From: Octopus sinensis
Lineage: Eukaryota
Reading direction: 5' to 3'
NCBI RefSeq assembly: GCF_006345805.1
Contig: NW_021826130.1
Span: 1-13,488 of the forward strand
DNA: 13,488 bases
The notes beneath the pieces were generated by a model. The model searched no databases. It was not told where the DNA came from and saw only the letters and a list, made by a program, of their open reading frames with translations. Position 1 is the first letter of the stretch; each line of letters opens with the position of its first letter. This document shows, piece after piece, positions 1 to 13,488 of the stretch. A program made the translations under genes and the position numbers.

Positions 1-76
1 GTATGTATGTATGTATGCATGCATGCATGTATGTATGTATGTATGTGTGCATGTATATATACACACACAAACACAT
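1..76. repeat. (GTAT)n/(GCAT)n/(CA)n compound microsatellite
   Basis: Directly visible. Confidence 0.95.
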
Positions 77-183
77 GCACATTACATAATAATTCTAGAC
101 TAACGATGAAAAAACTAATCTGAAATATTGGAAGAGATTTATCAAAAATAATTCAATTCCAAGTACGTCCCAATTAAACTTAC

Positions 184-362
184 CTGGTCAATGAAGGACC
201 ATTCTCTACTCAAATGACGGCAGAGAAGTATATAGACAAAGTGAGTGGAATTCCTGTGACCTGTCTTGGAATGAGGAACCATCCAGCTAATATTAATACT
301 TTCTGGAAGCAGCTGTATTCTGGGTTTTTCTATGAATTTTTTCCAGTTTTTCTTCTTTTTAT
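184..362 (-). CDS. Internal coding exon 4 of 4 ((D)KKKKNWKKFIEKPRIQLLPESINISWMVPHSKTGHRNSTHFVYILLCRHLSREWSFIDQ), phase 1-0; first half of an FN3-like domain
   Basis: Acceptor tctttgaattcttcacag|AT and consensus donor CAG|gtaagt. 179 nt within track ORF 142..480(-). Shows the P..SINISW..P...YIL..R...EW pattern of FN3 N-terminal strands, with N-glycosylation sequons NIS and NST. Confidence 0.82.
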
Positions 363-384
363 CTGTGAAGAATTCAAAGATAAG

Positions 385-430
385 TTTCTTTATTAGCCAC
401 AGAGGGCCGAACGCAGAGGGGACAAAATAC
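385..430 (-). mobile_element. Degenerate 3' tail fragment of SINE family A
   Basis: tttctttattagccacagagggccgaacgcagaggggacaaa resembles the tail tttctttactacccacaaggggctaaacacagaggg at 8401 and 11782. Confidence 0.65.
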
Positions 431-656
431 AATGTAGGGCTTTTCGTTTTGAAAATAGACCAAAAAAGAGGAGAAAGCAAAAATCAAAGTGAGCTCATTA
501 TATAGCTGTTACCATTCACTCTGATTCACCACCAGTTGAAGACAAAGTGACATCTGCCTCCCGTGACAACTGCGCCACACCATGTTCTAAACACCCTTAC
601 TGAGCCAGGAGAGTAATGGGAGGGAGCAAAAGAAACAAGTTTCCAACAACGAATTA

Positions 657-876
657 TGAGGTGTCACTGAAAAGTTCCTGGCTTTGGGTAAAAGAAAATA
701 CAGAAGGATCAGTTAATTATGATATTATCCATCATATTCCCCTCTCAGACTCACATACTTATTGCAGAGGTCCTTCAGTTATTCTAAGTCCTGTAAAAGT
801 ACTCGGAAGCTTAAGCCTCCAAAACTAGGCCTTTCACAATATCCTTAAAATCAGGAACTTTTCAGGCCACCTCTCA
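657..876. mobile_element. Mariner-derived MITE, copy 1
   Basis: Imperfect TIRs (tgaggtgtcactgaaaagttcctgg ... caggaacttttcaggccacctctca) flanked by TA at 655-656 and 877-878. Body matches the reverse complement of the mariner end at about 4700-4857. Confidence 0.85.
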
Positions 877-935
877 TATATATATATACACACACACACA
901 ACACACACACACATACATACATACATACATACATA
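877..935. repeat. (TA)n(CA)n(CATA)n microsatellite between the two MITEs
   Basis: Directly visible. Confidence 0.95.
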
Positions 936-1125
936 CAAGAGGGTGTCGAAAAGTTCCTGGCTTTGGCTAAGAGAAAATACAGGAGGATCAGTTAATTATG
1001 ATTTTATTCAACATATTTCCCTCTCAGATCCACACATTTATTGCAGCAGTCCTTCAGTTTTTCTAAACACTGTAAAAGAACTCGGAAGGTCGGGCCTCCA
1101 GCCAGGAACTTTTCAGAGCCCCTTG
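936..1125. mobile_element. Mariner-derived MITE, copy 2, with an internal deletion relative to copy 1
   Basis: TIRs caagagggtgtcgaaaagttcctggc ... gccaggaacttttcagagccccttg, with TA at 934-935 and 1126-1127. Confidence 0.85.
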
Positions 1126-1197
1126 TACAAGCACTTAAAGAATTTTGGTGTAACAAAGCACCTGATATGACTAATGCAGGTTTAAATGGTTAACAGA

Positions 1198-1545
1198 GTT
1201 AAGTTAAGTTAATTTTTTGGCTCAAAAAGCAAAAAGCAAGGCCATGTAGGGGGACATGGAGTTATGTACAGGGTGGTGCTCATGCAAAGAGTTCAGGCCA
1301 TTTCTGGTCAAGAGAGACTTTGAATCGAGCGGTCGTCGGCATCTTCACTATCTCGTCCGGCAGCTTATTCCACGGATCCGCAACCCGGATGGAGAAAGCC
1401 CCTCTCCTTCGATTGAGATGAAATCGTCGCAGATAGAGCTTTTCGGTGTGACCCCGCAGCCGATGCTCTGGAGCAGGAGTGAAGAACAGCTCTTTCGAGA
1501 GGTTACACTTTCCGCTTATGATGTTGTGAGCAAGAATGAGATTAC
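1198..1545 (-). mobile_element. CR1-clade LINE 3' end (ORF2 C-terminus, 3'UTR, (TTAAC)n tail), 5'-truncated
   Basis: RGHTEKL...RRGAFSIRVADPWNKLPDEIV...FKVSLD fits the CR1 ORF2 C-terminal RGH-x2-KL...FSxRV...WNxLP...FK..LD pattern. Short repeat tail at 1198-1212. Confidence 0.85.
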
Positions 1546-1697
1546 TTAATAAATACCAGGCCTTCTTAAGGAGCGTAGCAAGACCGTTACCAATGAACGT
1601 TGCATCGTTGAGGCCTAAATAGTCGGACATCGGCTCATCCTGCATGCTCCTAATGATTGGTCACTTAACCCAGTCATGTGATGGTGTAATACTTACT

Positions 1698-1773
1698 ATT
1701 TTACTCTTTTATTCTTTTACTTGTTTCAGTCATTTGACTGTGGTCATGCTGGAGCACCGCCTTTAGTCAAGCA
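1698..1773 (-). mobile_element. 3' end of SINE family B
   Basis: Reverse complement matches 2798-2868, including the gagtaaaa tail repeats. Confidence 0.85.
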
Positions 1774-1846
1774 TATGGAATCTTTCTGATTTGTGAGAGA
1801 AGCTATTTAAGCTTTCTGCTAACAATAATAAAAGAATTTTATTTAC

Positions 1847-1898
1847 CTTGCCGTGGTTTGCTTCTGTAGAAACTACATGATTCCTGACAGCCATTCAT
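1847..1898 (-). CDS. Internal coding exon 3 of 4 (MNGCQESCSFYRSKPRQ+G), phase 0-1
   Basis: Acceptor ttttttttttatttctttctag|ATG and donor CAAG|gtaaat. 52 nt. Completes a GCxxxCxF motif and its phase matches both neighbours. Confidence 0.85.
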
Positions 1899-2004
1899 CT
1901 AGAAAGAAATAAAAAAAAAATACAATTAATGAGTGATTAGAAATGATAAAACATTTAATTGTAATTAGTAGAGCACAGGTTCCCAACTAGTGTGCTGCAG
2001 CACC

Positions 2005-2260
2005 CTGAGGTGCTGCAAGATCAACTGGGGGCTACCGTGAGCTCAACCAAGGGGTGCCACAAGATCAACTGAAGGGTGCTGTGAGATCAACCGAGGGGTG
2101 GCACAAGATCAACCGAGGGGTGCCACAAGATCAATTGAGGGGTGCTGTGAGATCAACCGAGGGGTGCCACATATCGACTGAGGAGTGCTGTGAGATCAAC
2201 AAAGGGGTGCCACAAGATCAGCTGAGGGGTGCCGTGAGATCAACTGAGGGGTACCCCACA
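2005..2260. repeat. ~22-bp minisatellite (gaggggtgcYRYRagatcaacY), about 11-12 units
   Basis: Directly visible; it produces the repetitive track ORF 2054..2278. Confidence 0.9.
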
Positions 2261-2468
2261 ATATACGTACATATGTAGTATCATGATTGATCATTTAGAG
2301 TCAGAAATACATTTTGATACTTATTTTATCGATAAATATTATTGTCATCTTATATTTTGTATTCCTGTCTATCACATTTTTGTATTGTCATCTATTTTAT
2401 GCTTATTATATCAACATTAGTGAAATAAACAAAATTTTTTATTATTAATTCCAGGGACATAGTTTTCT

Positions 2469-2868
2469 GGCGTAGAAGTGGCTGTGTGGTAAGTAGCTTG
2501 CTTAGAGCCACATGGTTCCAGGTTCAGTCCCACTGCGTAGCACCTTGGGCAAGTGTCTTCTACTATAGCATTGGGCCGACCAAAGTATTGTGAGTGGATT
2601 TGGTAGACGGAAACTGAAAGAAGCTCGTCATATATATGTATATATATATATATATGTGTGTGTATATATGTTTTTCCCCCCAACATTGTTTGACAACCGA
2701 TGCTGGTGTGTTTACGTCCCCGTAACTTAGCGGTTCAGCAAAAGAGACTGATAGAATAAGTACTAGGCTTACAAAGAATAAGTCCTGAGGTCGATTTGCC
2801 CGACTAAAGGTGATGCTCCAGCATGGCCACAGTCAAATGACTGAAACAAGTAAAAGAGTAAAAGAGTA
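2469..2868 (+). mobile_element. Full-length tRNA-derived CORE-like SINE (family B) with an internal TA/TG microsatellite
   Basis: A-box-like gtggctgtgtggtaag, B-box-like ggttcagtccc, CORE-like accttgggcaagt and gagtaaaa tail. Flanking duplication tccagggaca(t/a)agtttt at 2450-2466 and 2876-2892. Confidence 0.85.
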
Positions 2869-3099
2869 GATGTTATCCAGGGACAAAGTTTTATTATAAT
2901 GATGGTGAATCAAAAAGCAACTGTTATATTAGATTTTCTAATAGGGGTGCCGTGGATTTCTGAAATGCTCAACAAGGGTGCTTTGAGGCAGAAAAGTTTG
3001 GGGTACTGTATAGTAGAGTATGCTATTGTTGTTGTTAGTGTTGTCATTGTATTTAGTTGTGAGTGGATATGAACATTGTTGTTAATATTGTTGTTGTTG

Positions 3100-3252
3100 T
3101 CCATCTGTCTTAATGTTCTGAGTTCAAATTCCACTAAGGTCGAGTTCGTCCTTTCGGGATCGTTAAATTAAGTACCAGTTGCGTACTTCGGTTGATCTAA
3201 TCGACTGACCCCCCACTCCAAAATTTTTGGGGAGGGAGCCAGAAAAGAATAT
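3100..3252 (+). mobile_element. Degenerate 5'-truncated SINE family A copy within (GTT)n sequence
   Basis: gttctgagttcaaattcc...ggtcga...cctttcgggatcg...aagtaccagttg matches the family A body. Confidence 0.8.
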
Positions 3253-3294
3253 TGTTGTTGTTGTTAACATGGAAAGGTGGCAGAATTGTCAGCA

Positions 3295-3385
3295 TGGCGG
3301 CGGCAGCGGTGGTTGTGGTGTTAGTGGTGGTGGTGATGGTGATGGTGATGGTGATGGTGAAGATGGCGGTGAAGGTGATGATGAT
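3295..3385. repeat. (GGC/GGT/GATGGT)n low-complexity repeat just downstream of the exon 2 donor
   Basis: Directly visible. Confidence 0.9.
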
Positions 3386-3402
3386 TTAAAAACAATACTA
3401 AC

Positions 3403-3477
3403 ACATATTTCTTCCAAGTGGCAGATGTTTTCCCAAAGTGCAAAATCTGAATAAAGCAAACTGCATGTTCTCCAACA
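3403..3477 (-). CDS. Internal coding exon 2 of 4 (CWRTCSLLYSDFALWENICHLEEIC), phase 0-0
   Basis: Strong acceptor ttttttttttcatttctgtgtttcag|TGT and donor TGT|gttagt. 75 nt of Cys/Trp-rich unique sequence between repeats. Confidence 0.85.
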
Positions 3478-3720
3478 CTGAAACACAGAAATGAAAAAAA
3501 AAATACTTAGAAACTGATTCTTGCATGTGCACGTGCATTGTCTGCGCGACTAAAAAAAATATGAACAGAAAGTCGAAACATACATAGCGTTGTTCCCCTA
3601 TTTTCTCCCTACATGCATGTTCTTAGATTAGTTGTTACGCAATGAGCTGGCCAAAAGTCCAAGAGACATGTTCTATAGCATCTTTCACAAATGAAACACA
3701 ACTAACTCACCAGTAATTTA

Positions 3721-3721
<1 letters not shown>

Positions 3722-3777
<56 letters not shown>

Positions 3778-3800
3778 TGTGTGTGTATATATATATATAC
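3722..3800. repeat. (TG)n then (TA)n microsatellite
   Basis: Directly visible. Confidence 0.95.
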
Positions 3801-3822
3801 ATGCCTGTATACCTGTATATAT

Positions 3823-4132
3823 GTGGAGGCGCAATGGCCCAGTGGTTAGGGTAGCAGACTCGCGGTTGTAGGATCATGGTTTCGATTCCCAGACTGGGTG
3901 TTGTGAGTGTTTATTGAACGAAAACACCTAAAGCTCCACGAGGCTCTGGCAGGGGGTGGTGGCAATCCCTGCTGTACTCTTTCGCCACAACTTTCTCTCA
4001 CTCTTTCTTCTGTTGGCCTGCTCGCTTAGCCAGCGGGGTGGCGTCATTTGGAGGCTAAAACAATGCGAAGCGCATTGTGACCAGCGATGTGTAGCAACAT
4101 CTGATATCCTGGTCAGTCACGGTCACGGTCAC
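3823..4132 (+). mobile_element. tRNA-SINE family C, tail type 1 ending in GTCACG repeats
   Basis: A box tggcccagtggttagg and B box ggtttcgattccc. TSD atacctgtatatat at 3809-3822 and 4133-4146. Confidence 0.85.
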
Positions 4133-4146
4133 ATACCTGTATATAT

Positions 4147-4407
4147 GTGGAGGCACATGGCCTAGTGGTTAGAGCAGCGGTCGAGGGATCGCGGGTTCAA
4201 ATCTCAGACCGGGCGATGTGTGTGTTTATGAGCGAAACACCTAAGCTCCGCTGACTCTTTCGCCACGACTTTCTCTCATTCTTTCTTCCTGCATCTTGCA
4301 GCTCACCTGTGATGGACCGGCGTCCTGTCCAGGTGAGGAACCTATAAGCCAAGGATACCGGGAAACCGGCTCTTATGAGCTAGGTGTGGCTTGAGGAGGA
4401 ACAAACA
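4147..4407 (+). mobile_element. tRNA-SINE family C variant, tail type 2
   Basis: A box tggcctagtggttag, B box gggttcaaatctc and tail cctgtgatggaccggcgtcctgtccagg...gaaaccgg. TSD atacctgtatatat at 4133-4146 and 4408-4421. Confidence 0.85.
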
Positions 4408-4432
4408 ATACCTGTATATATATTCCTATATA

Positions 4433-4857
4433 TTGAAGCAGAAACGCCATGGAAAGTTGAGCTGTGGAGTCCTGCTTTTGCAGGACAATGCTCCAGCACA
4501 CACAGCACATGAAACTCTAGAAAATACACGAATTTGGCTTTGAATTGGTAGACCACCCACCCATCTTGCTCTCCTGACTTGGCCCCCTCCGAGTATCACC
4601 TCGGAGAAACATCACAACTGAAGAAACATCTCGAGAGAACGAAATTTCTCTCCGATTTGCAAGGGGTTTGCTGCTACAGAGGCCTGTCTGGAGCCCCCAC
4701 TTTCCGAGTTCTCTTTATAAGGCTTAGAAAAAGTGAAGGGCTGCTGCAATAATAAGTATGTGAATTTGCGAGGCAAAGATGCTGAATAAAATTGTAAGTA
4801 ACTGATTCTCCTGTATTTTCTTTTACCGAAAGCCAGAAACTTTTCAACGCCTCCTTG
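4433..4857 (+). mobile_element. Mariner transposon 3' remnant: frameshifted transposase C-terminus plus right TIR
   Basis: Translates LKQKRHGKLSCGVLLLQDNAPAH, then after frameshifts FELVDHPP and SPDLAPSEYHL, matching the mariner HDNARPH and HPPYSPDLAPSDYHLF motifs. Ends in aagccagaaacttttcaacgcctccttg. Confidence 0.9.
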
Positions 4858-4897
4858 AGTGTGTATGTGTGTGCGTGTGTGTGTGTGTGTGTGTGTA

Positions 4898-4929
<32 letters not shown>

Positions 4930-4940
4930 GTGTGTGTTTG

Positions 4941-4974
<34 letters not shown>

Positions 4975-5057
4975 TTTGTTGTGTGTGTGTGTTTGTGTGT
5001 GTGTTTGTGTGTGTTGTGTGTGTGTGTGTTTGTGTGTGTTTTGTGTGTGTGTGTTGA

Positions 5058-5101
<44 letters not shown>

Positions 5102-5112
5102 TTGTGTGTTTG

Positions 5113-5143
<31 letters not shown>

Positions 5144-5166
5144 TTGTGTGTGTGTTTGTTTGTGTG

Positions 5167-5208
<42 letters not shown>

Positions 5209-5230
5209 TTTGTGTTTGTGTTTGTGTGCG
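4858..5230. repeat. ~370-bp imperfect (GT)n microsatellite
   Basis: Directly visible; source of the HT- and CV-repeat track ORFs. Confidence 0.97.
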
Positions 5231-5362
5231 TGCATGATGCCTGAAGCATCTGATATTTATCCCTTGCTAATGTACTGAACTGATAATGCCACTTATTATG
5301 TCAGCGACACCGTTCTGTCACTGATAACATTCACCAGATGATAATGTTTGTATCTGCCCCCC

Positions 5363-6278
5363 TCCTCTCTACTATAGGCACAAGGCCTGAAATTTAGGTG
5401 GAGGATTCTTGTCGATTACATCAACCTCAGTGTTTCACTGGTACTAAATTTATTGATCCCTAAAGGATGAAAACCAAAGTTGACCTCGGCGGAATTTGAA
5501 CTCAGAACGTAGCGGCAGCAAAAAACCTATTTCTTTACTGCCCACAAGGGTCTAAACACAGGGGACAAACAAGGACAGACAAACGGATTAAGTCGATTAT
5601 ATTGACCCCAGTGCGTAACTGGTACTTATTTAATCTACCCCAAAAGGATGAAAGGCAAAGTTGACCTTGGCGGAATTTGAACTCAGAACGTAGCAGCAGA
5701 CAAAATACCTATTTCTTTACTGCCCACAAAGGGCTACACACAGAGAAGACAAACAAGGACAGGCAAACGGATTAAGTTGATCATATCGACCCCAGTGCGT
5801 AACTGGTACTTATTTAATCGACCCCGAAAGGATGAAAGGCATAGTTAACCTCGGCGGAATTTGAACTCAGAACGTAGCGGCAGCAAAAAACCTATTTCTT
5901 TACTACCCACAAGGGGCTAAACATAGAGGGGACAAACAGATTAAGTCGATTATATCGATCCCAGTATGTAACTGGTACTTATTTAATCGATCCCGAAAGG
6001 ATGAAAGGCAAAGTCGACTTCGGCGGAATTTGAACTCAGAACGTAACGGCAGACGAAATACCTTTTTCTTTATTACCCACAAGGGGCTAAACACAGGGGA
6101 CAAACAAGGACAGACATAGGTATTAAGTCGATTACATCGACCCCAGTGCGTAACTGGTACTTATTTAATCGACCCCAAAAGGATGAAAGGCAAAGTCGAC
6201 TTCGGCAGAATTTGAACTCAGAACGTAACGGCAGACGAAATACCGTTGAGCATTTCGCCCGGCGTGCTAACGATCCTG
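5363..6278 (-). mobile_element. Tandem array of SINE family A: one partial head plus five bodies, the last with a different tail
   Basis: Unit junctions at 5527/5528, 5709/5710, 5892/5893 and 6062/6063 (spacing 182, 183, 170). The tRNA-like head occurs only at about 6244-6278. Confidence 0.92.
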
Positions 6279-6514
6279 TGAATGTTCTAAAGTGATGCTG
6301 TTGGAAGTAGATCCTCGTCGTTCATCGATAAGCGTGGGTTCAATTCTTTGATTAGGTGACTTACTAAGGTGACTGGTTGAGTATACCAGAGACACGTTTA
6401 TCCTTAACGCAATTCTCCAATGAAAAGGTGGCCAGTCAAAAATAAACTAAAACTTAAGAGAAATGAGTGAATATACATAAGTAAAGGGAAGAAACACTAA
6501 TATAACATACTCAC

Positions 6515-6568
6515 GTTATTGCATCTACCCGAGCATTCATTTTCAGTGTCAGCATTCATTGGTTGGAA
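6515..6568 (-). CDS. Internal coding exon 1 of 4 in window (FQPMNADTENECSGRCNN), phase 0-0, of a Cys-rich + FN3-like protein
   Basis: Minus strand reads ttattttattttccatccttag|TTC...AAC|gtgagt. 54 nt, no stop. Joins the next exon in frame to give CSGRCNN-CWRTC. Confidence 0.82.
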
Positions 6569-6595
6569 CTAAGGATGGAAAATAAAATAATAAAC

Positions 6596-6596
<1 letters not shown>

Positions 6597-6660
<64 letters not shown>
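6597..6660. repeat. (AAT)n microsatellite, about 21 units
   Basis: Directly visible. Confidence 0.97.
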
Positions 6661-6662
<2 letters not shown>

Positions 6663-6917
6663 GCAACCATACTCTGGGATATGCCAATACACACAGATAG
6701 AGAAATTAAGGCCAACAGGCCAGATATAGTTGTCAGAGATCATGAAGAAAAAAATTGCTTTCTAATTGATGTATCAATACCAGCAGATGACAACGTGTCT
6801 CTAAAAGAAATGGAGAAACTTTCAAAATACAAAGACCTGGAAATAGAGGTAACTAGAATGTGGAATCTAAAAACAGAAACAATTCCTATCATAGTAGGTG
6901 CATTAGGCATGATGAAA
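6660..6917 (+). mobile_element. R4/Dong-like non-LTR retrotransposon fragment: restriction-like endonuclease (RLE) domain
   Basis: KATILWDMPIHTDREIKANRPDIVVRDHEEKNCFLIDVSIP...EKLSKYKDL...IPIIVGALG has the RPD...ID..P...K..KY RLE signature. Frame is open and starts directly at an (AAT)n tract. Confidence 0.88.
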
Positions 6918-6949
6918 CTTGGGTTGGCCATCACAACTTGACAGATATC

Positions 6950-7650
6950 ATGAGGGCTGCTGATATCTGTCTCGTCTTTCGAGTCTGGATCTCTGCAGTT
7001 TATAGAGACGTACTCAGCGATCAGAGTAAATGACGTGTCGGAAAGTCCAGTATGCGATCTGTCCGTCAGGAGTGATCCCCCTGTCTACCTCTGTGCATAC
7101 TGACTCTAAAAGTTTCAAGGTACATCCCGCGAGAACTAGGGTATGGAAAATCCGTGTTTGCATATGTGAACGACGTCGCCGTAATATTGTCAGACACTAA
7201 ACAAATGGTGATTGGCACTTCTGAAGGAATATAAGGCGGTCATAGGAGCAACAATTAACCAGGGGAAGTCCTTGTGTTCGCAGCTCAGTATTTGGAAATG
7301 TAGGCCCATACCGTCTAACAACAGGTTCATACCGTCGTTGCGTGCTGGACAGACGGTCCGGTTAAAGAGCTCGGGCTTTGGTTTGGTTTGGTCCAGATCT
7401 CCAGGTGGACAAAAGAAAATGGGCCAAACTATCCCAGAAGGGTCGAGCAGTAGTGGCGAACGCCTACATCATATCTATCATCTACTACCCCTTGACTATC
7501 GCACAGTGCCCCGCTTCATGTCTAATCAGAATGGAACGCCCTGCTCTTCCACTTTTTGTGGAGCGGACGCGTCCCGTAAGTCAGATGGTCTATTTGCTGT
7601 GAGCATCTGTGAGTGGAGGGTTGGGTATGCCATGATTAATGATGCGCACC
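6950..7650 (+). mobile_element. Decayed Tx1/L1-group LINE reverse transcriptase fragment
   Basis: Remnant motifs in the expected order across frameshifts: SVRQ, FAYVNDV (AYADD-like), LKEYKAVIGATINQGKS, VWFGPD, LSQKGRAVVANAYIISIIYY, GGLGMP. Confidence 0.8.
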
Positions 7651-7782
7651 CTTAACTATTTCTTTTTCCCAGGCTAAGTCCCTCGAGTCCGTATGGGAAC
7701 GAACACGAGACTTGTCGTTGGCTACATCAAGGCCAAAATCTCGTAATTCACTGGATAGGCACCAAAGTAACACAGTCACTAC

Positions 7783-7939
7783 CAGGGCGGGCTGAGAGTA
7801 TTAAGGGACCTCGGGCATAACTGTTTACCGGTTCCCTTTGAATGTGTGTTTTAGTAGAGTTAACATGTAGAGTGCGGGCCTCTCAGAGCACCGGGTCCTA
7901 GGGCTGTGCCCGATTGACCGACGGCTCAATCCACCCCTG
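7783..7939. mobile_element. Short hAT-like MITE inserted in the Penelope fragment
   Basis: Imperfect TIRs cagggcgggctgag ... ctcaatccacccctg. Left 8-bp TSD gtcactac at 7775-7782; the right copy is split (gtc 7940-7942, actac 8281-8285) by a SINE. Confidence 0.65.
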
Positions 7940-7943
7940 GTCT

Positions 7944-8282
7944 GAGACCCCCTTCGGTCACGACACTGGCCATGGGATTGCACCTAGAAAGTTACCCTCC
8001 CAGGCACAAGTCCGGGCAAGTTGTTTAAGGAAGATCAGCAGTCGCCCATGCATACCGACCTCCCCTCTCCACGCCACCAGTGTTATCCAAGGGAAAGGCA
8101 AAGGGGCCGATACAGCTTAGCACCTGTGACGTTGCAAATCATTTCTACAACTGAGTGAACTGGAGCAACATGAAATAAAGTGTGTTGCTCAAGAACAAAA
8201 CACGCAGCTCGGTCCGGGATTCGAGCTCACAACCTCACGATCGTATGCTCGATGCTCTAACCACTGAGCCATGCGCCTTCAC
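7944..8282 (-). mobile_element. Full-length tRNA-derived CORE-like SINE (family D)
   Basis: Minus strand gtgaaggcgcatggctcagtggttagagc (A box) ... gagctcgaatccc (B box) ... cttgagcaacacacttt...ccagttcactcagttgtagaaatg (CORE-like). Confidence 0.85.
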
Positions 8283-8400
8283 TACATAGATAACAGTATC
8301 GGCGTCGCCTCATTCTCCAGAGACCAACTGAATACTTTCAGCAACTTCTTCCACCCTTCCCTCTATCATCTTGGCATCCTCCATTAACTTTCTACATACC

Positions 8401-8631
8401 TATTTCTTTACTACCCACAAGGGGCTAAACACAGAAGGGACAAACAAGGACAGACAAACGATTAAGTCGATTATATCGACCCCAGTGCGTAACTGGTACT
8501 TAATTTATCGACCCCTGAAAGGATGAAAGGCAAAGTCGACATCGGCAGAATTTGAACTCAGAACGTAACGGCAGACGAAATACGGCTACGCATTTGGTCC
8601 GACGTGCTAACGTTTCTGCCAGCTCGCCGCC
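8401..8631 (-). mobile_element. Full-length monomeric SINE family A
   Basis: Head ggcggcgagctggcagaaacgttagc to tail gtaaagaaata. TSD tttctacatacc at 8389-8400 and 8633-8644. Confidence 0.92.
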
Positions 8632-8997
8632 TTTTCTACATACCTTTCTACATAACTTTCTACATACCGTTATCTCTACCAACCACCGCGATCACAGTCC
8701 CATTGCATATTTTAAATCCACTGACTTTCACTTCAGTCTTGAATTTGTCTCCTCTTAATTTCTTCTAATAAACGAACCTTCTCCTAATCCTATAATATTT
8801 CCATTTCCGCTCTTTATGCAACCGCGACAAAAAGCAGGTTTTGCCACTCTATTTGAAGACACCCTAAGAGATGAAAAGCAAAATTAATCATGGCAGGATT
8901 TACAGTTTCCAGAAAACCATCTATCCAACCAACACTTGGACTTCTGCACCAATTCACTGTACACACACACACACGCACCCCCCCCCACACACATACA

Positions 8998-9102
8998 TTA
9001 CTTGTTTCAGTCAGTAGACTGTGGCCACGCTGGAGCACTGTCTTGAAGACTTTTTAGTCAAATGAATCGACTCCAGTACTCTTTTTTGAAGCCTGGTACT
9101 TT
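8998..9102 (-). mobile_element. 3' fragment of SINE family B
   Basis: ttacttgtttcagtc...gtggccacgctggagcac is the reverse complement of the family B tail. Confidence 0.8.
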
Positions 9103-9115
9103 TTTTCCGGTGTCT

Positions 9116-9117
9116 TA

Positions 9118-9185
<68 letters not shown>

Positions 9186-9193
9186 AATATATA

Positions 9194-9226
<33 letters not shown>

Positions 9227-9262
9227 ATGTATGTATACACACACACACACGCACACACACAC
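9116..9262. repeat. (TA)n/(TG)n/(TATG)n/(CA)n compound microsatellite
   Basis: Directly visible. Confidence 0.95.
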
Positions 9263-9265
9263 GAG

Positions 9266-9354
9266 GAGTCTTCTGTAACTTCAGACCGACCAAAGCTTTA
9301 TGAGTGGATTTGGTTGAGGAAACACATACATACATACATATGTGTGTGTGTATG

Positions 9355-9387
<33 letters not shown>

Positions 9388-9628
9388 GTGTGTGTGTGTG
9401 TGTGTTTAAGTTTGTCTACGTCCCCGTAACATAGCAGTTCGGCAAAAAAAAACCGATAGAATAAGTACCAGACTTCTGAAAAAAAAATAAAAAGAAAGAA
9501 AAAGAAAGAAAAAGAAAAAGAAAATAATAAGTACTGGGATCGATTTGTTCAAGTAAAAGTTCTTCAAGGTAAGTGCCCCCCCCCCCCAGCATGGCCGCAG
9601 TCCAATGACTGAAACAAGTAAAAGATTA
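9266..9628 (+). mobile_element. 5'-truncated SINE family B with internal (TG)n and A-rich expansions
   Basis: ccgaccaaag...gagtggatttgg...acgtccccgtaac...cagcatggccgcagtccaatgactgaaacaagtaaaaga matches 2570-2860. Confidence 0.85.
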
Positions 9629-9917
9629 AAGGAAGGAAGGAAGGAACGAACGAAGGAAGAAAAAACAAACAAACAAACAAACAAGAAAAGTAGGGAAGGG
9701 AAGAAGGAAGTGTAGAAACGGGATGTAAAGGAAATGGGTGCAAAGTGAAAGTCGACTGACTCCGGTCGTTGACGGATCAGTTGTTGTGTCAGAGATGCAA
9801 TGATAAGACAAGTGCAGATGTGGTGCAGACTCGATAATGCAGCTGGGGTCATGGCAACAGTGGATACAAGCGATGTGGGTTGGCAGCCTTCGACATTTTT
9901 TTTCTATTCAAGGAGTT

Positions 9918-11347
9918 TTATTTTTAACCCCCCCCCCCCAATCGAAATTGCGGAAGGCGGCGAGCTGGCAGAACCGTTAGCACGCCGGGCGAAATGCGTA
10001 GACGTGTTTTCGTCTGCCGTTATGTTCTGAGTTCAAATTCCGCCGAGGTCGACTTTGCCTTTCATCCTTTCGGGGGTCGATAAATTTAAGTACCAGTTAC
10101 GCACTGGGGTCGATGTAATCGACTTAATCCGTTTGTCTGTCCTGTTTATTTTTACACCCCCCCCCCAATCGAAATGCGGAAGGCGGCGAGCTGGCAGAAC
10201 CGTTAGCACGCCGGGCGAAATGCGTAGACGTATTTCGTCTGCCGTTATGTTCTGAGTTCAAATTCCGCCGAGGTCGACTTTTGCTTTCATCTTTCGGGGG
10301 TCGATAAATTAAGTACCAGTTACGCACTGGGGGTCGATTAATCGACTTAATCCTTTGTCTGTCCTGTTTATTTTTACCACCCCCCCCCCCATCGAAATGC
10401 GGAAGGCGGCGAGCTGGCAGACCGTTAGCACGCCGGGCGAAATGCGTAGACGTGTTTTCGTCTGCCGTTATGTTCTGAGTTCAAATTCCGCCGAGGTCGA
10501 CTTTGCCTTTCATCCTTTCGGGGGTCGATAAATTAAGTACCAGTTACGCACTGGGGTCGATGTAATCGACTTAATCCGTTTGTCTGTCCTGTTTATTTTT
10601 ACCCCCCCCCCCCCCCCAATCGAAATGCGGAAGACGGCGAGCTGGCAGAAACGTTAGCACGCCGGGCGAAATGCGTAGACGTATTTCGTCTGCCGTTATG
10701 TTCTGAGTTCAAATTCCGCAGAGGTCGACTTTACCTTTCATCCTTTCGGGGGTCGATAAATTTAAGTACCAGTTACGCACTGGGGGTCCATGTAATCGAC
10801 TTAATCCGTTTGTCTGTTCTTGTTTGTCCCCTCTATGTTTAGCCCCTCGTGGGTAGTAAAGAAATAGGTATTTCGTCTGCCGCTACGTTCTGAGTTCAAA
10901 TTCCGCCGAGGTCGACTTTGCCTTTCATCCTTCCTGGGTCGATAAATTTAAGTACCAGTTACGCACTGGGGTCGATGTAATCGACTTAATCCGTTTGTCT
11001 GTCCTGTTTATTTTTAACCCCCCCCCCAATCGAAATGCGGAAGGCGGCGAGCTGGCAGAACCGTTAGCACGCCGGGCGAAATGCGTAGCTGTATTTTCGT
11101 CTGCCGTTATGTTCTGAGTTCAAATTCCGCCGAGGTCGACTTTGCCTTTCATCCTTTCGGGGGTCGATAAATTAAGTACCAGTTACGCACTGGGGGTCGA
11201 TATAATCGACTTAATCAGTTTATCTGTCCTTGTTTGTCCCCCTCTATGTTTAGCCCATTGTGGGTAGTAAAGAAATAGGTATTTCGTCTGCCGCTACGTT
11301 CTGAGTTCAAATTCCGCCGAGGTCGACTTTGCCTTTCATCCTTTCGG
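9918..11347 (+). repeat. Tandem array of SINE family A copies, each with the same ~35-38-bp poly(C)-containing 5' flank
   Basis: SINE starts at 9956, 10182, 10405, 10633 and 11043, each preceded by atttttaC(n)aatcgaaatgcggaa. Units 4 and 5 also carry a tail plus a second headless body. Confidence 0.93.
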
Positions 11348-11602
11348 AAAAGACTGATAAATATAAGCAACATCCCTGCTATTGAATAATAACATACAGA
11401 TCAAAGTAAGGAATATTAGTTGAACACTCCTACCGAAACGCCTACGAAGCGCAAGCATAACAGATTTGACATAGTTATTTGAGACAGAAAACAAAAGTTT
11501 TGTACACTCATAGAGGTTAGCTGCCTTGAAGATGAGAACATCTCTTCCAAAATTAGTGAGAAAGAGAATGTCTTACTTAGCCCGTCGGTAACGCTTTCAC
11601 GG

Positions 11603-11740
11603 GATTAGAGAAAAAAGAGAGAGAGAGAGAGAGAAGCGTCCGTGACATGTGGTAGAGGGAATGTAATTGTAACGCTTTCAAGAGATTAGTGGAAGGGAAA
11701 GGAGGGGAGAGAAAGAAAAAGGAGAGAGAAAAAGAGGGTA
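11603..11740 (-). repeat. Unclassified dispersed repeat, inverted copy of 13244-13376
   Basis: Reverse complement taccctctttttctc...ctaatctcttgaaagcgttacaattacattccc...ctctaatc matches the right end of the window. Confidence 0.8.
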
Positions 11741-11781
11741 GCTGTTTCGAAACCTGCAACTCCTCCTCTATCCTAATTATA

Positions 11782-12008
11782 TATTTCTTTACTACCCACA
11801 AGGGGCTAAACACAGAGGGGGCAAACAAGGACAGACAAAGGGATTAAGTCGATTATATCGACCCCAGTGCGAAACTGGTACTTTATTTATCGACCCCGAA
11901 AGGATGAAAGGCAAAGTCGACCTCGGCGGAATTTGAACCCAGAACGTAACGGCAGACGAAATACGGCTACGCATTTCGCCCGGCGTGCTAACGTTTCTGC
12001 CAGCTCGC
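11782..12008 (-). mobile_element. Near full-length monomeric SINE family A
   Basis: TSD ctatcctaattata at 11768-11781 and 12009-12022. Confidence 0.92.
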
Positions 12009-12244
12009 CTATCCTAATTATAAATTCTCTTGCGGGACCCGTGAATATTTCACGAAATCAATGGTAAACCTATTGGGTTATACGTGAAAACTTTACCCCC
12101 CAAAAAAACCTGAAAGCATAACCTCTGTTGTGCCTGTATCAAAAGATAGCCGCTCATCAGCTATTCATTGAAAAGAGAAGGAAATTGGAATACGATGATT
12201 ACTTTATGCACTTTATATACTTTATGCAAAATTTTATAGACTTA

Positions 12245-12684
12245 CTAGCAGCATAGCCCGGTATTGCCCGGGTATGTAAGAGCCCCTTGTAGGCAACGAC
12301 TAATCCCAATCTAGTCCTTTCCCTCTTGGGAACGAAGGCGCATGTGCAGGTTGCAATATCTCCTCTTCACTCGAATACTTCTGTGTATACGATGTTCCTA
12401 GCTGTCCCTTTGGGCGATAAAAAGGTCGAGTTGTGTCCCCTAGACAGAAAATGTGTTGCATATAAAAAGCTTAGATTCTCGACCCCATATCGAATTTATC
12501 GATCTTTTTCAGAACTGGGGGAACTTTTCAAAGTTTTCGCTGCGTTAGTTTTGAATTATGACATTTGACTATGTGTGTGTCAAGTTTCATCAGAATCGGT
12601 TGAAAGCCGTGGTCAGGGTGAGGGTACAACCTGACAGACACACAAACACACAGACAGACAAACTGCCGTTTAAATATAGAGAGA
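12245..12684 (-). mobile_element. Complete 440-bp non-autonomous Helitron
   Basis: Minus strand begins A|TCTCTCTATATTTAAA, has GTCT-type repeats and ccgattctgatgaaacttg, and ends with hairpin cccgg-gcaata-ccggg, 8 nt, then CTAG|T. Inserted between A and T with no TSD. Confidence 0.88.
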
Positions 12685-12731
12685 TTTTTCCATTTTCCCC
12701 ATAAAAATAAATATTCCGTACATATGTTACA

Positions 12732-13026
12732 GTGGAGGCGCAATGGCCCAGTGGTTAGGGCAGCGGACTCCGCTGTCGGAGGATCGAAGTTTCGATTCCC
12801 AGACCGGGTGTTGTGTGTGTTTATGGAGCGAAAACACCTAAAGCTCCACGAGGCCCCTGTTGTATTCTTTCGCCCCAACTTTCTCTTGCTGTTTCTTGAG
12901 TAACGCTGCGATGGACTAGCGTCCCGTCCAGATGGTGGTGGGGGGACACATACGGCATAGAAACTGGGAAACCGGGCCCATGAGCCTGGCTAGGCTTGAA
13001 AAGGGGCGCATAAAAAAATTAAAAAA
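12732..13026 (+). mobile_element. tRNA-SINE family C with a head like the 3823 copy and tail type 2
   Basis: gtggaggcgcaatggcccagtggttagg...gtttcgattcccagac...ctgcgatggactagcgtcccgtccag and A-rich end. TSD catatg(t/a)taca at 12721-12731 and 13028-13038. Confidence 0.85.
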
Positions 13027-13243
13027 ACATATGATACAACCTTTAGTTAAAATGCAACATAGATATTTCACGGAATTGCACTTATGCGCATGCATTAAGT
13101 GATGGGTGATATATAAAAAAAAACTTAGTATCCTTTCCACTATCCACGCACTACCGCTACCTCCACCACCACCACCATCTTCACCTACCACGCGTCTTGG
13201 ACGCTCTTTTTCTCTCTCCCTCTTTCTGCCTCACTCTTCGCCT

Positions 13244-13376
13244 TACCCTCTTTTTCTCTCTCTCCTTTTTCTTTCTCCCTCCCTTTCCCTTCAACTAATC
13301 ACTTGAAAGCGTTACAATTACATTCCCCCTACCTCATGTCATCGGCGCTTCTCTCACTCTGTCTTTTTCTCTAATC
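13244..13376 (+). repeat. Unclassified CT-rich dispersed repeat, partner of 11603-11740; probably extends on both sides
   Basis: Direct inverted match to 11603-11740. Confidence 0.75.
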
Positions 13377-13488
13377 ATGTTGGTAATGTCTTTTCCTTCT
13401 TTGGACTTTTTCCTTTCTCCTCTCCGACGAAGAGCTATGCTCGAAACATCAACCTCTCTCCTTTCACCGATCGTCAAAGCTATTTCAT

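Follow-up and report, generated by a model that had tools for sequence, protein, structure and literature searches.

Tandem arrays of an Octopus sinensis SINE probably arise by nested insertion at one position of its own head

Introduction

In crocodilians, SINEU and Tx1-Mar, a short and a long interspersed element (SINE and LINE), share insertion sites in an abundant repeat, Mariner-N4_AMi, and sequential insertion there generates tandems (PMC4494074). The target in that system is a DNA transposon, and the tandems keep a target site duplication (TSD) between full copies. Here, we describe a SINE of Octopus sinensis whose tandem arrays are built through one recurring joint between the tail of one unit and a headless body. 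It was studied from a stretch of 13,488 nucleotides (RefSeq assembly GCF_006345805.1, contig NW_021826130.1, positions 1 to 13,488 of the forward strand), hereafter the window, and from further copies in the genome. Unlike in the crocodilian system, the target is the SINE's own head, most units have lost their heads where the 5′ joint forms, and the LINE is found within the SINE. Joints form anew by insertion at position 45 of the head with target duplication, and the arrays are probably built in place by target-primed retrotransposition of SINE copies into this position of older copies.

In R1 and R2 (PMC2718515, PMC6530143) and in SART1 (PMC7265360), the RNA carries target sequence that pairs with the cleaved DNA; read-through at the 3′ end makes integration more efficient, and the 5′ flank gives precise joints. 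These elements are autonomous and have a fixed host-gene or telomere target, whereas in the octopus a SINE that is dispersed and multiplies itself serves as target, and the flank carried may differ by lineage. Strict targets are also used by LINEs with an apurinic endonuclease (APE), such as Tx1L of Xenopus in Tx1D, and Kibi and Koshi in microsatellites (PMC4494074); a related family ends in TATC repeats in the octopus. No SINE head is among the targets summarised in that report, and the LINEs described here are only putatively of the same clade.

Arrays of a similar layout are known from Scapharca broughtonii, where TSD1-(SINE)n-TSD1 loci likewise have a first unit with a full head, a fixed head truncation in the units that follow and one TSD around the array (PMC11481361). 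Those arrays make up about 3% of the SINEs, their inner units are also truncated in the tail, and unequal recombination was suggested; in the octopus, by contrast, roughly 4 in 10 of the exact tails belong to joints, and nested insertion is observed. Squamate SINE-derived satellites, and the Dip and B1 multimers cited with them (PMC10702118), are likewise made of partial SINE units in tandem, the terminal unit being longer, and their long loci are homogeneous and their short ones varied. They are attributed to duplication and concerted evolution, are subtelomeric and reach up to 1000 units, unlike the octopus arrays, which are dispersed, mostly of two or three units (115/128) and seeded by insertion. 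A literature search that covered mainly the main text of openly available articles turned up no report of a SINE that homes into its own head or of a LINE that homes into a SINE. Active L1-Tx1 families are listed in a recent annotation of octopus repeats, with no SINE-head homing in its available part, and its repeat library could hold the families described here (PMC13282606); two other papers (PMC4758252, PMC3649969) served as background only.

Results

The SINE is 231 nt long and is present in the window as two monomers and two arrays. Positions in it were counted from GGCGAG at the start of the monomer at 11782..12009 (minus strand), the first reference copy, which is flanked by a 13 bp TSD (11769-11781 and 12010-12022). 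The other monomer (8401..8631, minus strand) has a G40/C45 head and a tail, here called tail A, of the T-type; its TSD of 12 bp (8389-8400 and 8633-8644) begins GGTAT in SINE sense. Both monomers terminate in AAGAAATA before the TSD, as reported in an initial annotation made from the sequence alone. Their family is a short dispersed repeat; TSDs, with a median length of 15 nt, were identified for 45 of 60 tail-A monomers. An A-box-like TGGCAGAAACG and a B-box-like GTTCAAATTCC were spotted by eye. The SINE may resemble CORE-SINEs, which have a central CORE domain, and the octopus OR-OK families.

All six joints listed in the initial annotation were located at their coordinates. On the minus strand, AAGAAAAA is followed by GGTATTTCGTCTG at 6062, AAGAAATA by GGTTTTTTGCTG at 5892 and 5527, and AAGAAATA by GGTATTTTGTCTG at 5709; the plus-strand joints at 10866 and 11277 match the consensus exactly. 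As separate occurrences they do not all count, because a 411-bp tandem repeat, in which the upstream flank is copied as well, holds the joints at both 10866 and 11277; this leaves two independent loci in the window. The GG of the joint is the SINE's own head positions 45-46, since the commoner head reads TTAGC followed by GGTATTTCG; this origin is hidden in the window because its two monomers, and only these, carry the GTAGCC variant.

The joint was counted genome-wide. Its exact 24-mer occurs 12,107 + 12,133 = 24,240 times, a frequency far above chance, its reversed control not once, and exact tail A has 107,769 matches. The samples used from here on are the first matches on a few contigs, chosen by exact patterns, and several counts were made by eye. 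After the first 100 exact A tails (by eye), the sequence continues at SINE position 45 in 38 cases, at position 12 in four, at other body positions in none and with non-SINE DNA starting GG in 14. The breakpoint is thus concentrated at position 45 rather than dispersed, and the argument that random unequal crossover would not reuse one breakpoint holds. Upstream of the first 100 well-kept bodies stood a tail in 74, a head in 25 and unrelated DNA in one. Headless monomers starting at position 45 are rare (1/100 in one sample, 3/409 in another), and no headless body followed tail B, a different tail described below, in 100 cases. The base at position 45 was C in only 2 of 74 SINE joints, and in 4 of 226 in a second, biased sample.

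Among 128 joint-bearing arrays drawn from loci not chosen for a doubled head, 89 had two units and 26 had three; 99 began with a single full head and four had a doubled head. Joints to positions 45 and 12 also occur in contigs from four runs that bear the labels of other organisms. In three mRNA runs with the label of the same species, 111 reads had the joint to position 45 and 2,132 the joint to position 12. No peaks of read starts or ends were seen in these runs, which cannot show ends made by RNA polymerase III (Pol III) because they are unstranded. The joint to position 12 is a second fixed joint, AAGAAATA followed by AGAAACGTTAGC, and is tied to C-type tails (L007, L050, L207, L209).

The formation of joints was observed at loci with a doubled head, defined as a second head within 30 nt of the GTATT of a head. 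This pattern occurs 148 times genome-wide, against 45 times at a control site after the B box. The 30 loci retrieved include 24 distinct ones; in 18 of these, the host sequence picks up again at position 45 behind the new tail, and in eight of them (L111, L115, L116, L128, L134, L136, L138, L140) both duplicated copies carry a common private change. None of 14 distinct control loci resumed at the control site. The six remaining doubled-head loci were 5′ partial head duplications or unclear. Joints are formed anew, then, by insertion at position 45 with target duplication, and insertion into the hairpin of existing copies, with the 5′ end resolved by homology, is the best supported of the explanations that the initial annotation had offered.

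Separately, some full copies are preceded, within one TSD, by tandem runs of 5′ partial heads of the form (1-60)n or (1-97)n (L118-L126, L135, L155-L160). Pieces ending near position 100 terminate at CTTT runs. These partial heads possibly reflect template jumping onto short Pol III products, or else local duplication.

The target of terminal copies is linked to the tail. GG starts the 3′ flank after 41 of 73 T-type terminal tails and after 1 of 41 C-type tails (p=9e-10). Because GG is also found in the 5′ target copy of 25 of the 28 GG flanks with a TSD, it reflects the choice of target. The GGTAT target of the monomer at 8401, taken initially as a weak hint of site preference, is thereby part of a real, subfamily-linked preference. 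Targets have T at position 3 (55/67) and A at position 4 (56/67), and C or T precedes GG in 21 of 25. Mismatches between the TSD copies fall mainly at positions 1 and 2 (10 and 6 of 67, respectively) compared with 0-3 at positions 3-9. C-type terminal copies often land at AGA... targets, and T-type copies are also found at GGTAC(T) on the antisense strand of the SINE body (L098, L109, L146, L247), a second hot spot with the same first four bases. Joints with C45 on tail-B hosts are ambiguous evidence for an RNA-templated base, as 10 of 100 B-type bodies carry a G40/C45 head.

A site-specific LINE occupies the same position of the SINE head. At least 97 of the first 100 of its 167 exact tails continue, by eye, with SINE position 45. 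The flanks were counted in 21 copies (20 hand-picked from the tail list, and L307), 20 of which are full length at about 5.35 kb, and each of these 20 lies between two copies of SINE positions 45-60. The base at position 45 is the same on both sides in 21 of 21 copies (15 C, 6 G). Its first open reading frame (ORF1) has a zf-CCHC domain, and ORF2 has Exo_endo_phos (APE), RVT_1 and, just under the cut-off, zf-RVT; the best PDB matches are L1 endonucleases. From this architecture the LINE is putatively Tx1-like; preference for a multicopy target, another trait of that clade, is seen as well.

In 18 copies with the 5′ end located by script, positions 45-60 of one flank and of the other disagree at 19 of 288 sites (non-CpG 10/198). 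The bodies of 17 copies differ by 0.5% on average, which makes the flank copies approximately tenfold more different (p=1e-7), and L348, L350 and L351 have zero branch length and yet two flank differences each. As the flanks of this young LINE differ far more than the bodies, one flank copy appears often to have come with the RNA. This suggests that the LINE RNA often carries SINE sequence at its ends that takes the place of host bases, a process known from R1 and R2. In L347, a private change on both sides of the LINE marks a true duplication. Host heads around the LINE are more diverged at positions 1-30 (29/357) than at 31-60 (7/323, p=0.0005). In the LINE tree, a burst of 15 copies mixes C and G states at position 45 without resolution.

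A second LINE, of the CTAT-type, shares tail A and ends in TATC repeats; its 3′ end, with tail A, lies in the window outside the arrays (383..460, minus strand). The site-specific LINE is 53% identical to it over 226 ORF2 residues. GG followed none of 100 tails of the CTAT-type LINE, which rules it out as the source of the GG preference. The two bases before its TATC repeats (L241-L270; window 383-460, minus strand) vary with the LINE subfamily, like the tail-linked flank of the SINE.

A young SINE subfamily has changed T40-G45 to G40-C45 (window 11970 and 11965), which keeps the stem of the head hairpin and loses GGTA. It is rarely used by SINE joints and is used by the young LINE. An escape mutation was considered for C45 and rejected, since SINE joints avoid C45 but the LINE uses it.

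Arrays with a single head were compared by age. The first heads of 35 clean arrays ending in tail B were more diverged than those of 61 tail-A monomers (0.061 vs 0.036, p=0.003; 62/1018 vs 65/1805 non-CpG), whereas the first bodies were equal (0.034 vs 0.034; 68/2005 vs 121/3514). G40 was found in 27 of 61 tail-A monomers, 5 of 35 heads of tail-B-ending arrays and 0 of 38 tail-B monomers. In 71 arrays, divergence of the head tracked that of the last unit (rho 0.36, p=0.002) more than that of the first body (0.23, p=0.05). Outer TSDs were found for 17 of 33 tail-B arrays, as decayed as in tail-B monomers that share the tail variant (8 of 16; p=0.73), and those of the arrays were more decayed than those of tail-A monomers (45/60; p=0.03). 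In these arrays the head and the outer TSD appear, from divergence, to be older than the first body.

Neighbouring units in arrays of two to four units diverge by 0.089-0.094, compared with 0.094 between arrays. Not one of 2,628 array pairs had at least two rare alleles in common in the first unit and again in the last, Mantel tests gave r of 0.01-0.05, trees showed no congruence, and the combinations of unit subfamilies were varied. The position-specific alleles and linked ancestry of left and right units expected of an Alu-like dimeric SINE were not found, and this SINE is not a true dimeric SINE. The single-head arrays thus appear mostly to have been built in place. In one 7-unit array the neighbours were 0.013 apart, a homogenisation as in SINE-derived satellites that is absent from the arrays of two to four units; this array and the plus-strand array of the window were lengthened by local DNA duplication, as long arrays probably were more widely. 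In last units with tail B, divergence is lower in the 5′ part than in the 3′ part (0.044-0.050 vs 0.077-0.083), and a T122/A125 subfamily is enriched before the joint (89/180 vs 30/135, p=7e-7).

The arrays have the layout of a head followed by headless units. On the minus strand of the window, unit 1 (6063..6280) has a head of the T16, TTAGC-type lineage, with the first ~11 nt missing or diverged, a body and tail A. It is followed by three headless tail-A units, of which unit 2 (5893..6062) starts from position 45 and has a 14-nt deletion, unit 3 lies at 5710..5892, and unit 4 (5528..5709) is 3.2% from unit 3. The last, unit 5 (5363..5527), is headless with an older body, 10.6-13.8% from units 1-4, and ends in tail B, a different tail that the initial annotation had not mentioned. 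Unit 5 is likely, judged by its divergence, the remainder of the original host copy. Units 3 and 5 have four private changes in common over the first ~17 nt and are 11.7% apart over positions 46-163; the common changes look like a TSD-like copy with the same footprint as the doubled-head loci.

The plus array begins with three 223-bp repeats (9915..10632), each of upstream flank with a poly-C spacer, head and a body cut at ~188, a local tandem amplification. A full SINE with tail A and a G40-type head (10633..10866) precedes the first plus-strand joint, and the headless unit after it (10867..11009) spans positions 45-188 and then a flank copy. The second copy in the 411-bp duplication is again a full SINE with tail A (11043..11277), and the headless unit that follows (11278..11347) is cut at position ~115. 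A 40-nt piece of the upstream flank is repeated with each unit.

The initial annotation had placed the break in the loop of a long hairpin of the head, called an anticodon loop. A hairpin is indeed predicted (11953..11982, minus strand), with a stem of about 12 bp and a 4-nt loop at positions 41-44 (z −2.05), and the insertion site, between positions 44 and 45, is the boundary of this loop and the 3′ arm. The anticodon label found no support, because ARAGORN called no tRNA in the window and an Rfam scan of it gave no tRNA match, its matches being below the gathering score and mostly microsatellites. An anticodon arm, with a 5-bp stem and a 7-nt loop, was rejected given the predicted stem and loop. 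The inverted repeat at the joint folds weakly (centroid unfolded, z +1.03), and the functional role proposed for it is unsupported.

Several other repeats were seen in the window. An old headless fragment of the SINE with a tail-B-like end lies at 3104-3260. Another tRNA-like SINE family, with head GGAGGCGCAATGGCCCAGTGG, is found at 3825-4130, 4149-4410 and 12733-13010, the two adjacent copies with a repeated flank. A further common repeat at 2478-2870 and 9270-9630 has an internal microsatellite and a 3′ part in common, GCATGGCC.CAGTC.AATGACTGAAACAAG. A 22-bp minisatellite of ~11 copies with a 66-bp higher-order period occupies 2009-2252, and two diverged copies of a ~170-bp repeat, with a microsatellite between them, lie at 660-850 and 940-1125. 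Two LINE-like protein fragments at 1280-1660 (minus strand) and 6660-6940 (plus strand) had no Pfam match and are presumably a C-terminal reverse transcriptase-side piece and a piece of restriction-like endonuclease type, respectively.

Discussion

The building of the arrays may be depicted as follows. The SINE likely borrows in trans the enzymes of the LINE clan. As the consensus unit is without a T4 run, Pol III would read through tail A into downstream DNA. Since T-type tails precede GGTA(TTT), an observed link, the RNA would end in GGUAUUU... and would match every resident copy from position 45 onward, with which it likely pairs. After a nick between positions 44 and 45, reverse transcription would start at the last base of the tail, which would give the fixed joint at the observed site. 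On the 5′ side, the cDNA would either be joined after a target duplication of 6-20 nt, leaving the doubled head that is seen but rare, or anneal to the homologous head of the host, leaving no second head, as the older heads suggest. Repeated insertion at the surviving site would then stack the units. Annealing of a flank has precedents in the 3′ read-through of R2Ol (PMC6530143), in the 5′ co-transcript of R1 (PMC2718515) and in SART1, the report on which cites work on R1Bm (PMC7265360).

Several observations weigh against this reconstruction. The sampling described above is one; another is that doubled heads were found in only 4 of 128 joint-bearing arrays, with one full head in 99, so that the homology step rests for most arrays on statistics and not on single loci. 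Of 16 informative tail-B arrays, only three had the host type at positions 58 and 60 of the first unit, and in the first sample a rare allele at positions 46-65 of the first unit recurred in the last unit in no more than 2 of 29 cases. Keeping of host positions 45-60 on the 5′ side is accordingly not the rule, and the switch from host to new sequence lies mostly before position 58. Sharing of private alleles at 46-65 was given up as a per-locus test of homology, being negative in that first sample and later positive but unspecific. Within-array sharing was raised in four of six windows along the unit, not only at 46-65, so local duplication or conversion also acts. The units of the plus-strand dimer are young and close (1.8-3.1%) and could be a copy of a whole dimer. 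No RNA with a 3′ extension was seen. The last 42 nt of the SINE match both LINEs about equally (35/42 for the CTAT-type, 32/41 for the site-specific one), so that either may be the partner of the SINE. The young LINE burst (0.5%) postdates most arrays, whose bodies are 3-7% from the consensus, and GG sites are avoided by the C-type SINE tail, which is the one that the tail of the site-specific LINE resembles.

The most serious competitor concerns the pairing step only: insertion would be nested, with the site chosen by the endonuclease of the SINE-targeting LINE alone, which would recognise the sequence or the hairpin. The near-invariable use of position 45 by that LINE, with its constant 16-nt flank repeat, fits such a choice, as do the common TA at target positions 3-4 and the pyrimidine before GG, and target choice is mainly ascribed to the endonuclease in PMC4494074. 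We nevertheless find it a rather doubtful account, since the flank can be predicted from the variant of the SINE tail, and this link runs counter to the likeness of tails with the site-specific LINE; the LINE takes both C45 and G45 hosts (15 and 6 of the 21 mostly hand-picked copies), whereas C is scarce at SINE joints, also in the biased sample; the flank copies of the young LINE are too different for one DNA duplication; and TSD mismatches at positions 1-2 exceed those at positions 3-9. It is improbable that multimeric sources were transcribed through and copied whole, with a joint that arose a few times and was inherited. Such sources are suggested by the TSD around whole arrays, the unit without a T4 terminator, the T122/A125 subfamily enriched before the joint and the close units of the plus dimer; however, neither sibling clusters nor congruent trees were found, subfamily combinations are varied, outer TSDs are as old as the last unit, and the doubled-head loci show the joint forming anew. 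A few multimeric masters fit poorly with the lack of siblings among the 2,628 pairs. Thousands of sources would not show in 73 arrays, and a minor share of multimer copying may occur if the sources are that many.

Gene conversion or unequal exchange at the DNA level, copying the joint into monomers or duplicating units locally, is as a whole a quite improbable explanation, and its two parts fare differently. As a lengthening process it is supported by the close neighbours of the 7-unit array (1.3% apart), the plus array repeating its own flank, the sharing raised along much of the unit and the lower 5′ divergence of last units with tail B. It is excluded as a source of the joint itself: the switch from host to new sequence lies before ~58 and not anywhere along the 163 shared bases, target duplications from position 45 and LINE insertions at 45 need retrotransposition, and neighbours in arrays of two to four units are about as different as units of different arrays. 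We give very little credence to a reverse transcriptase that stalls at the hairpin or at a cleaved loop and jumps to another RNA 3′ end. The partial heads, (1-60)n and (1-100)n, look like template jumping at RNA 5′ ends, and the units of short arrays are unrelated, but headless monomers from position 45 are rare, headless bodies after tail B were absent from 100 cases, the joint is exact with no added bases, and heads and TSDs are older than the first body. Rolling-circle copying of a ~184-nt circular RNA is hardly credible. The fixed unit length and joint agree with a circle, as do the 111 RNA reads with joints, though genomic arrays inside mRNAs could supply these. Units from one circle would be identical at birth, which those of short arrays are not, and 99 of 128 arrays start with a full head while many end in tail B.

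Array formation by retrotransposition into position 45, as preferred here, would be a route from a SINE to a tandem repeat by insertion and not by recombination. The arrays are a very large natural data set on the parts of RNA-DNA pairing and endonuclease in site choice and on 5′ end resolution, and a young LINE with long open frames and one target base in a dispersed repeat makes the question testable in vitro. Flank-guided integration of APE type, if true, would be of interest for RNA-templated insertion tools. The arrays also confound SINE annotation and dating, because one 'copy' may combine a head and a body of unequal age. For the family as a whole, the evidence is evenly balanced on whether target choice is heritable and RNA-guided. 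The read-through flank would then act as the guide: a lineage lying in a SINE head would re-home there, and its sisters would keep position 12 or TATC repeats. The SINE would be passenger, target and possibly promoter of its own parasite, in a runaway loop that seeds satellites.

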